DNA of 1,456 nt from Naegleria gruberi. Lineage: Eukaryota. The translations under genes and the position numbers were made by a program. A model generated the notes under the pieces. That model was not told the DNA's origin and did not search any database. It saw only the letters and a program-made list of their open reading frames with translations. The stretch is from assembly GCA_000004985.1 (NCBI GenBank), contig GG739417.1, one strand, 5' to 3'. Below, piece after piece: positions 1-1,456 of the stretch (within the stretch, counting starts at the first letter, position 1; each line of letters opens with the position of its first letter).

Positions 1-81
1 AACATCAATAACAGATACAATTGAAATTAATCCCCATATATGTAAACCAATCCATATAATAACACTAATATATAATAAATA
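1..81 (-). other. Third hydrophobic, TM-like segment (NYLLYISVIIWIGLHIGGLISIVSVIDV) running off the low-coordinate edge of the window
   Basis: The + sequence here (taa/ata/aat/cca/acc/atg/tat/ccc/tcc...) decodes on the minus strand as an L/Y/I/S/V/W/G-rich run of about 27 aa. It is preceded by the acidic EDESP. Confidence 0.45.
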
Positions 82-1456
82 ATTTGGTGATTCATCTTCT
101 TGTATTGTTGTTGTTGAAGTTGTTGTTGTTGGTATTATATTATTATTAGATCCACTATTATTTAAATTATTATTTATGGAAATTGAATTATTTAATGAAT
201 TTTTTAATTGTTGTTGTAATTGTTGTGGATCAGTTGTAGTTGTTGTTGTAGTTGTTATAGTACTATTATTAGTCATATTATTATTTTTATTTTGAAAATA
301 ATTACTATTATTAATATTTAAATTATTCGAACTTTCCATATTTGTATTTGAATTAACATTTATAGAATTATTTAAAGAATTTCTATTCATTAAATTTGAA
401 TTATAATTTAAAATTTCATTATAATAAAAAACATCATCATCTTTTAAAGGTTCAAATCTAACAGTTGTTCCATTTTCTAAAATTGTTTCTTCTTGTAATT
501 GTTTTTTTTTAAATAATTGTTTTTTTTTAAATAAACTAATTGAATCTTGATGTTCAAATTTGTAAGTATGTTTTTTTAAATTCTTTTTTTCTAATTGTTT
601 TTTATTTTTTTTTAATAATTTAGTTTTTTTAAAACATTTAAAAATCATGAATGAAATTAAAAATAAAGAAAATAATAAACAATTAATAGAATTAGATAAA
701 ATAATAAATTTCATATAATTTTTAGTACATGATATTTCTATTATCATTCCAATAATAAAAATAGTTAAAAATAATAAAAATAAAAAAGTAAATAAAGTAA
801 TAAAAATAGAATGTGCAATAATAGAAGATAACCAATATTGATATCTAAACCATTTCATTGATCTACCTTGATATAAAGTTTGACTTTCATAAACTTGTAC
901 TAAATTTTTAAATCCAACAACTCTATCAAATATTGGATCATCTCTAAATGTTGTTATTGATTTCTCTTCATTCATTTCACTTAAAGATGAATAACTTTTT
1001 AATATTGATTTGGAACTTGAATTCTTTTTTAAATTATTTAAATTATTTAAATTAATATTTAAATTATTATTGTTAGATTTTGAATTATTTAAATTATTAT
1101 TATTATTAGGTAATGATTCTACATTATTTTCATGTATTAAACTACCTTTAGAATTATATCTAACATTTGATACTGTTGTTGTTGTTATTGTATTATTATT
1201 GGATGTATTATTATTTTGATTTTGATTGGAAATAAAAGATTGATTGGTATGTGTTGTTGTAAAACTATTATTATTATTACTACTAATAAAACTCATATTA
1301 TAATTTGTTATATTTGATGTTATTTCATCTAAATGATTATTTAAATTATCATTAATATTATTATTTAATAAATTATTTAATGATTTTTGATTTAAATTAT
1401 TAGTTGAATTATTATTACTATTTTGTATTATATTTGATATTTGTGATGATGTTATT
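1..1456 (-). CDS. Internal fragment of a large N/T/Q/K-rich low-complexity integral membrane protein, open at both ends (no start or stop in window). The minus-strand frame uses + triplets 1-3 ... 1453-1455. I translated this frame by hand (reverse-complement of + triplets starting at positions congruent to 1 mod 3). Reading minus, 1455 down to 1, it gives approximately: ITSSQISNIIQNSNNNSTNNLNQKSLNNLLNNNINDNLNNHLDEITSNITNYNMSFISSNNNNSFTTTHTNQSFISNQNQNNNTSNNNTITTTTVSNVRYNSKGSLIHENNVESLPNNNNNLNNSKSNNNNLNINLNNLNNLKKNSSSKSILKSYSSLSEMNEEKSITTFRDDPIFDRVVGFKNLVQVYESQTLYQGRSMKWFRYQYWLSSIIAHSIFITLFTFLFLLFLTIFIIGMIIEISCTKNYMKFIILSNSINCLLFSLFLISFMIFKCFKKTKLLKKNKKQLEKKNLKKHTYKFEHQDSISLFKKKQLFKKKQLQEETILENGTTVRFEPLKDDDVFYYNEILNYNSNLMNRNSLNNSINVNSNTNMESSNNLNINNSNYFQNKNNMTNNSTITTTTTTTTDPQQLQQQLKNSLNNSISINNLNNSGSNNNIIPTTTTSTTIQEDESPNYLLYISVIIWIGLHIGGLISIVSVIDV
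   Basis: Every occurrence of TTA, CTA or TCA on the + strand (the reverse complements of TAA/TAG/TGA) falls in the other two phases. None starts at a position congruent to 1 mod 3 anywhere in 1-1456. About 485 stop-free codons by chance in DNA this AT-rich is essentially impossible. The + strand itself is riddled with TAA/TGA/TAG. Codon usage is strongly Dictyostelium-like (N=AAT, Q=CAA, T=ACA/ACT, K=AAA, L=TTA, I=ATT). No minus-strand intron donor (acttac on +) is visible, which fits a single exon across the window. Confidence 0.82.
104..130. repeat. (TGT)n microsatellite interrupted by gaag. It encodes poly-Thr (TTTTSTTT) on the minus strand via ACA codons.
   Basis: attgttgttgttgaagttgttgttgttgg: TGT triplets in phase with the minus-strand frame. 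Confidence 0.85.
208..258. repeat. Compound trinucleotide tract: (TTG)n, which is CAA poly-Gln (QQLQQQ), abutting (TGT/AGT)n, which is ACA/ACT poly-Thr (eight T in a row) on the minus strand
   Basis: ttgttgttgtaattgttgtggatcagttgtagttgttgttgtagttgttatag. The triplet phase switches from ttg to tgt at the ggatc junction, giving ...TITTTTTTTTDPQQLQQQLK. Confidence 0.85.
499..534. repeat. Perfect 18-bp tandem duplication, ttgtttttttttaaataa x2 (499-516 and 517-534). It is in frame and encodes LFKKKQ-LFKKKQ on the minus strand.
   Basis: Letter-by-letter comparison: ttg + T9 + aaataa occurs twice, head to tail, with zero mismatches. 18 nt is 6 codons, so the frame is preserved. Confidence 0.9.
631..687 (-). 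other. Predicted transmembrane helix 2 within the minus-strand ORF (INCLLFSLFLISFMIFKCF, about 19 aa), followed at once by a Lys-rich segment
   Basis: A hydrophobic run lying 12-15 residues after TM1, which looks like a helical hairpin. It is followed by KCFKKTKLLKKNKKQLEKKNLKK, a positive-inside style flank. Confidence 0.5.
739..807 (-). other. Predicted transmembrane helix 1 within the minus-strand ORF (IFITLFTFLFLLFLTIFIIGMII, about 23 aa)
   Basis: An uninterrupted run of I/F/L/T/G/M codons (revcomp of aat/aaa/taa/agt/tcc/cat/tat on +). It is flanked by polar or charged residues: WLSSIIAHS upstream and EISCTKNYMK downstream. Confidence 0.6.
1031..1067. repeat. Imperfect 9-bp tandem repeat (aaattattt / aattattta family, about 4 units). 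In frame, it encodes an (N-N-L)n style tract (LNNSKSNNNNLNINLNNLNNL).
   Basis: aaattattt aaattattt aaattaata tttaaattatt: period 9 with 1-2 substitutions per unit. Confidence 0.7.
1093..1107. repeat. (ATT)5 microsatellite, which is (AAT)5 poly-Asn on the coding strand
   Basis: attattattattatt in frame; it translates to NNNNN. Confidence 0.85.
1174..1186. repeat. (TGT)4 microsatellite encoding TTTT on the minus strand. A second short (TGT)3 lies at 1252-1260.
   Basis: tgttgttgttgtt, and later gtgttgttgt. Confidence 0.8.
1264..1284. repeat. act(att)4actact, encoding SSNNNNS on the minus strand
   Basis: actattattattattactact in phase with the ORF. Confidence 0.8.

Follow-up and report, generated by a model that had tools for sequence, protein, structure and literature searches.

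Genes of the Dictyostelium discoideum type are characterized by extreme A+T content, by homopolymer tracts of Asn, Gln and Thr (AAT, CAA and ACA triplets) within the coding sequence (CDS), and by a preference for TTA, AGA and CAA codons (in part PMC3188802). The 1456-nt stretch of DNA analyzed here (the window, which always means the whole stretch) resembles them in these features. Its protein relatives belong to an uncharacterized family of multi-pass membrane proteins. Judged from the sequences at hand, this family is so far confined to Heterolobosea (Willaertia and Naegleria) and one environmental contig, and its members have 444-595 amino acids (aa). The G+C content of Naegleria is 33-37% (PMC12482156). 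One short block of the family recalls a docking segment for protein phosphatase 1 (PP1), described in GADD34 with the spacing of 555-KVRF-558 and 564-VHFL-567 (PMC12723162). We report that the minus strand of the window carries part of a genuine protein-coding gene of eukaryotic nuclear type, intact as far as it goes and from the very A+T-rich genome of an amoeba-like eukaryote, and that its product very probably belongs to this family.

The A+T content of the window was 83.2%, in agreement with an earlier note on this DNA, which had put it above 80%. Six-frame translation showed that one minus-strand phase, read from plus-strand position 1455 to position 1, is open throughout its 485 sense codons (0 stops); the remaining five frames contain 20, 49, 50, 73 and 98 stops. 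The same note had described this stop-free phase and had named what would speak against it, namely an in-frame TTA, CTA or TCA on the plus strand at a position congruent to 1 mod 3. None was found there, and the other two phases hold 98 and 50 such triplets. From the base composition of the strand, stops are expected at 10.5% of codons, which puts the probability of a stop-free run of 485 codons at about 5e-24. Among 1000 shuffles that preserved the dinucleotides, the longest run without a stop, whatever the frame, was 60 codons on average and 129 codons at most. The program-made list of open reading frames (ORFs) contains nothing longer than 69 aa, as had been stated. The mechanical reason suggested for its silence also holds: the gene is missing from the list because, by the list's own description, ORFs running off either end of the window are excluded.

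The stop-free run had been called a very strong coding signal. The gene is real, as its homologues and periodicity attest, but the run alone overstates the evidence, because in-phase low-complexity tracts are open in one phase by construction. G+C at codon positions 1, 2 and 3 of the frame was 18, 27 and 5%, respectively. Codon usage was nearly uniform for several residues (Leu TTA, 49/49; Asn AAT, 98/99; Gln CAA, 22/22; Arg AGA, 7/7). Both this periodicity and the surplus of stops in the other frames persisted in each of six sub-segments, the first 53 codons and the non-repetitive sub-segments included. The gene call is settled by this periodicity, its persistence across the sub-segments, and the homologues of the non-repetitive parts.

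An exhaustive phmmer scan of 1.84 billion (1.84e9) cluster representatives with the window protein returned exactly three homologues. P0001 (444 aa, E 1.7e-17) is an environmental protein from a 3.3-kb Joint Genome Institute (JGI) metagenome contig (3300002220). P0002 (462 aa, E 6e-16, aligned to query residues 85-484) is the Willaertia magna hypothetical protein ABK040_013453 (KAL9641532.1). P0003 (595 aa, E 5e-6) is the Naegleria fowleri unnamed protein product CAG4707986.1. Composition-adjusted pairwise BLASTP gave E values of 3e-26 for P0001 and 9e-18 for P0002. Outside the low-complexity tracts, the window protein is significantly similar to the heterolobosean family, which is predicted to have four transmembrane segments (TM1-TM4). 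In Willaertia, the gene consists of one 1389-nt exon, and its neighbors on the 475-kb contig are ordinary nuclear genes (RCC1/WD40, transferase, nucleotidyltransferase).

Two four-way alignments, A1 and A2, were made from the window protein and the three homologues. They contain 28-29 invariant columns in collinear blocks, all of which are present in the window protein. The blocks follow one another in the order [VI]RYNS; [KR]x[VI]xF-xxx-V-x-[VI]-x-E-xx-T-x-Y; helix 1 with A/T-H-S/I; an 8-9-residue loop with C-[DT]-K-x-Y; helix 2 with LS[DN]..[NC]C..F.LF; a Lys/Arg-rich stretch; K[FL]xHQ[DN]SxSL; LEP[LI]KD[DE]; and helix 3 with W..LH.WG..S..SVID. The signature motifs of the heterolobosean four-TM family thus occur collinearly in the window, whose protein is, by these alignments, a fourth and highly divergent member of the family.

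The best match is P0001, with 34-42% identity over the RVxF-like block, TM1, TM2, the HQDS motif and TM3. Its central loop, however, is short, without Asn/Thr tracts, and the LEPLKD motif is missing. P0002 has an identity of 27-28% to the window protein and the same motif order: [IV]RYNS, KxVxF-xxx-VxV, TM1, the C-D-K loop, TM2, the basic stretch, KHQNSISL, LEPIKDED and W..LH.WG..S..SVID. P0002 is complete, with TM4 and a stop, whereas the window fragment ends before TM4; the low-complexity insertions of the two proteins differ, and P0002 is uncharacterized too. P0003 has in common with the window protein KKIYF-NEQ-VQI, TM2, KFVHQDSFSL, LEPLKDEE and W..LH.WGL.SIVSVID.GTC. Its N-terminal arm is much longer, and the whole TM1 segment (A1 columns ~460-512), present in the other three, is missing. 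The G-T-C loop is kept in P0003, but the protein ends in a non-hydrophobic tail. The missing TM1 and the non-hydrophobic end probably reflect an error of the gene model, e.g., a false intron.

Other searches added no further relatives. A word-index protein search with the central 212 aa gave no match, the same search with alignment A2 recovered P0002 alone while low-complexity words filled the candidate list, and the trimmed alignment A3 gave no match. An exact 36-mer of the window was not found in metagenome or viral contigs. No relatives turned up when metagenome, viral and prokaryotic genome contigs were scanned with the family profile, so that there is no evidence for a viral or prokaryotic origin.

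Hydropathy analysis of the window protein revealed three transmembrane-type segments (aa 217-235, 257-275 and 465-483), with a peak of 2.96 in TM1. AlphaFold2, run with the four-sequence alignment, predicted helices at those three segments with a predicted local distance difference test score (pLDDT) of ~80, and the rest was disordered (pLDDT 30-45). The complete P0001 core was modeled as four long helices (pLDDT ~70), an architecture that would apply to the family. In P0001 and P0002, which are complete, x-G-T-C and another hydrophobic helix, the fourth, come after SVID and take up 35-45 residues together; the stop follows. TM4 is seen in these two proteins only; the window has TM1-TM3. The TM1-TM2 and TM3-TM4 loops have 8-10 residues and are neutral or acidic. 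Lys/Arg-rich flanks mark the cytosolic side of membrane proteins (the positive-inside rule). Because Lys and Arg pile up after TM2, the central loop is predicted to be cytosolic. We infer a four-pass membrane protein whose N-terminal arm, central loop and C-terminus would be cytosolic and whose two short loops would be exoplasmic. Each exoplasmic loop has a conserved Cys (C-D/T-K and G-T-C), and a disulfide between them is possible. An internal duplication, in which the TM1-TM2 hairpin would correspond to TM3-TM4, was hinted at by a weak BLASTP line and was rejected (hhalign probability, 0.2%).

TM3 is the most conserved part of the family. Ten residues in 17 are invariant (W468, L471, H472, W474, G475, S478, S481, V482, I483 and D484). 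Invariant residues recur every 3-4 positions (W468, L471/H472, G475, S478, S481) and are therefore predicted to lie on one face of the helix. On the alignment evidence, such conservation exceeds what a passive anchor would need.

As a tentative working model, the protein may combine a four-helix membrane core, with a polar site inside the membrane, and disordered cytosolic arms that carry regulatory or docking motifs. The helical bundle would be the functional core, and its intramembrane polar site could serve an ion, a metal or a partner helix. The polar face of TM3 (W..LH.WG..S..SVID) would stand opposite the conserved TM1 His and the TM2 Ser-Asp/Asn. The arms would serve in regulation or docking by way of conserved short motifs, of which [KR]x[VI]xF-xxx-V-x-V before TM1 would be the first. 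Several points weigh against this model. No family member carries any annotation, and the proposed function is drawn from motifs and topology only. Pfam and NCBIfam scans of all four family proteins gave noise only, as did sequence and profile searches of the PDB. The family alignment has four sequences, one of which (P0003) is without TM1. In addition, Foldseek returned no match at E <= 0.001, and no profile or specific fold match was obtained to known four-TM families (MARVEL, tetraspanin, claudin/PMP22 and others; e.g., synaptophysin, sarcospan and peripherin-2).

The block before TM1 invites a comparison with PP1-docking proteins. RVVGFKNLVQV (aa 178-188; 892-924, minus strand) matches the loose RVxF pattern [RK]x0-1[VI]{P}[FW]. 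Each of the four proteins has a single match to this pattern, at the identical aligned position, and positions +4 and +6 after the Phe of the block are conserved as V/I. In PPP1R15A/GADD34, the docking segment KVRFSEKVTVHFL is part of a disordered region and has the same V-x-F-x-x-x-V-x-V spacing (KVRF-SEK-VTV) as the family block (PMC12723162); its counterpart in P0001 is LVGFSEHVQVR. The likeness to the RVxF-phi-phi arrangement of GADD34 extends over ~10 residues only, and the family block fails the strict consensus. That consensus is [KR][KR][VI]psi[FW], where psi is not F, I, M, Y, D or P (PMC12723162). It was found in none of the four members: RVVGF of the window and KLVGF of P0001 are without the second basic residue, and KNVDF of P0002 (psi = D) and KKIYF of P0003 (psi = Y) have excluded residues. 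The loose pattern is also present in ~50% of shuffled sequences. These observations count against docking of PP1 through the block, which is a doubtful candidate function.

A different division of labor would make the protein a membrane-tethered scaffold, in which the transmembrane part would be only an anchor and the cytosolic motifs (RVxF-like, HQDSxSL and LEPLKDE) would do the work. Three conserved short motifs do stand within cytosolic regions that are otherwise unalignable and of low pLDDT, and the [KR]x[VI]xF-xxx-VxV block is spaced as KVRF-SEK-VTV of GADD34. This arrangement is rather unlikely, since the conservation of TM3 goes beyond a passive anchor and the RVxF match falls short of the strict form in 4/4 members. 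The model with a functional helical core remains our working model.

The gene might also be a recently inactivated pseudogene or a gene fragment, such as a truncated duplicate, with its lesion outside the window. The window shows no stop and no certain start of the gene, a point in favor of this reading and against the main one. The window protein is not in the 15-billion-protein collection, and its long low-complexity insertions could reflect relaxed constraint. On the other hand, no frameshift or stop occurs in 1455 nt at 83% A+T, every residue invariant among the homologues is kept, including the complete TM3 motif, and a protein of an unannotated or unsequenced organism would be expected to be missing from the database. 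Inactivation is thus very unlikely.

Still less probable is an origin of the open frame from in-phase trinucleotide low complexity, (AAT)n, (ACA)n or (CAA)n, in non-coding A+T-rich DNA. About half of the translation is indeed Asn/Ser/Thr/Gln low complexity (Asn, 99 of 485 aa), and Tandem Repeats Finder (TRF) reported many arrays of period 3, 9, 12 and 18 in the window, which open one phase by construction. The non-repetitive core (aa 148-345 and 456-485), however, is just as free of stops. Its homology to three independent proteins, at library-wide E values as low as 1e-17, in effect refutes this reading, and all segments keep the same phase and the same periodicity. A true gene on the plus strand can be dismissed almost with certainty: although the ORFs of notable size in the list are all on that strand, and one plus frame has fewer stops than the others, this frame still carries 20 stops, and the 69-aa ORF has a TTG start and a poly-Leu/Phe/Lys translation, which is what Asn/Lys/Glu codons give in reverse complement. 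That ORF lies entirely within the homology-supported minus-strand CDS. Together with the low-stop plus frame 2, it is the antisense shadow of a codon-biased, Asn-rich gene and not a second gene. The reading of the minus-strand frame as an intact piece of a gene of this family is therefore kept.

The dictyostelid origin implied by the earlier note is not supported. All homologues are heterolobosean or environmental; the phmmer scan of the representatives and the word-index search brought up neither a dictyostelid homologue nor an identical protein, a result that leaves room for an unannotated or unsampled species. The D. discoideum AX4 proteome was within the searched collection, as shown by an exact actin look-up, which led to EAL accessions and an 8.5-Mb contig. 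The composition and codon usage of the window are compatible with dictyostelid genes, but are common to other A+T-rich protists; the Dictyostelium resemblance is compositional and is not phylogenetic evidence. The window is also far more A+T-rich than its relatives, with a G+C content of 17% versus 28% for the Willaertia locus and 39% for the P0001 contig; G+C at third codon positions (GC3) is 5% in the window and 21% in the Willaertia gene. An origin from the mitochondrial DNA (mtDNA) of Acrasis kona, which also has 83.3% A+T, was considered and rejected: the homologues are nuclear, and a deposited mtDNA ORF would have matched in the phmmer scan. A joint reading would have an unsequenced, ultra-A+T-rich amoeba, either a heterolobosean with Dictyostelium-like composition or a member of a dictyostelid-like lineage, carry this otherwise heterolobosean family as an unrecognized class of membrane-embedded, PP1-docking or ion-handling four-helix proteins. 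We regard this combination as improbable.

The gene had been claimed to continue past both edges of the window. Past plus-strand position 1 this stands: the frame is still open one residue after SVID, where the window ends and the complete homologues go on for ~35-45 residues. By comparison with these proteins, TM4, the C-terminus and the stop must lie beyond this edge. On the 5' side, continuation is only probable. The 53 codons upstream of the first in-frame ATG (Met54) are open and have a GC3 of 0%, and the other two same-strand frames contain 9 and 15 stops there; the local chance of such an accidental opening is ~0.002. The CDS thus quite likely continues past plus-strand position 1456. 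If the protein began at Met54, 31 residues would precede the alignable part, versus 23 in the Willaertia homologue, and this possible start would also fit the N-terminal length of that protein. Large, as the gene had been called, is an overstatement: ~525 aa or somewhat more is expected, which is ordinary beside homologues of 444-595 aa. The features are summarized in Table 1.

Table 1. Features of the window, in plus-strand coordinates; minus-strand features follow the direction of the gene.
Feature	Position	Strand	Basis
Uninterrupted CDS, 485 codons, internal-to-C-proximal gene fragment	1..1455	-	0 stops, shuffles, GC3 5%, homologues
N-terminal Asn/Ser/Thr-rich arm, aa 1-147, predicted disordered and cytosolic	1015..1455	-	translation; pLDDT <50 where modeled
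First in-frame ATG, codon 54, possible start, probably internal	1294..1296	-	upstream 53 codons open
Conserved VRYNS patch in N-terminal arm	1150..1164	-	A1, invariant S102
Juxtamembrane block RVVGFKNLVQVYESQTLYQG, aa 178-197, RVxF-like	865..924	-	invariant F182, V186, E190, T193, Y195
Predicted TM1, aa 208-239, conserved His in A-H-S motif	739..834	-	hydropathy, AlphaFold2 helix pLDDT ~80, alignment A5
Predicted exoplasmic loop EISCTKNY	715..738	-	A2, A5; Cys invariant in the three homologues having the segment; 8-9 aa in all members
Predicted TM2, aa 248-272, Y..LS[DN]..[NC]C..F.LF	640..714	-	hydropathy, AlphaFold2; invariant Y247, S254, C259, F262, L264, F265
Lys-rich stretch directly after TM2	562..639	-	K+R 8/15 in first 15 aa; 5 in P0001, 6 in P0002
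KFEHQDSISLF motif, predicted cytosolic loop	529..561	-	invariant H302, Q303, S305, L308
Perfect 18-nt tandem duplication, in frame, LFKKKQ twice	496..534	-	TRF period 18, 2.2 copies, 100% match
Acidic motif RFEPLKDDD, family pattern LEP[LI]KD[DE]	433..459	-	invariant P336, K338
Asn/Thr/Gln low-complexity insertion, 110 aa, predicted cytosolic loop, no counterpart in P0001/P0003	91..420	-	alignments A1, A2; pLDDT 30-35
Predicted TM3, most conserved family motif W..LH.WG..S..SVID	1..81	-	invariant residues; AlphaFold2 helix pLDDT ~78
69-aa ORF, TTG start	1010..1219	+	ORF list; Leu/Phe/Lys-rich, without periodicity of its own

The finding is an ordinary gene of low-to-moderate interest, and it has no bearing on a long-standing open question. 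Its first use is in quality control, as an ORF list that needs both ends within the window hides the only real gene of a short window. Such edge-cut genes are reliably signaled, where the DNA is A+T-rich, by a long frame without stops. In addition, the divergent fourth member sharpens the conserved motifs of an unannotated four-pass membrane-protein family, and a small phylogenetic puzzle is posed by a Dictyostelium-like composition against named relatives that are heterolobosean only.

Introns were considered and rejected, with 0 in-frame stops, homology blocks collinear in one phase, and a single weak donor-like GTAATT. Rfam and tRNA scans of the window found nothing. Scans for bacterial promoters and terminators gave the same result in the window as in shuffles and are irrelevant to this DNA.

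The Asn/Thr/Gln tracts are lineage-specific and belong to a type of low-complexity insertion that accumulates in A+T-rich genomes. In Willaertia P0002 (residues ~375-395), the acidic motif is undivided (LEPIKDEDSNY) and immediately precedes TM3. The window instead has EPLKDDD and EDESPNY 110 aa apart, separated by the Asn/Thr/Gln tract, as if an insertion had split or duplicated the motif. The 18-nt duplication stands directly after KFxHQDSxSLF and looks like a recent slippage event within the CDS. Six runs of 7-9 A, which encode Lys runs, occur on the coding strand (502-510, 520-528, 571-577, 584-590, 605-613 and 624-630). To our knowledge, poly-A tracks inside ORFs are tolerated in few A+T-rich eukaryotes only, such as Plasmodium and Dictyostelium. 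On its own contig, the P0001 gene adjoins an RNA ligase gene with a T4 Rnl2-type C-terminal domain (PF09414, PF18043; L001 1471-2574, minus strand).

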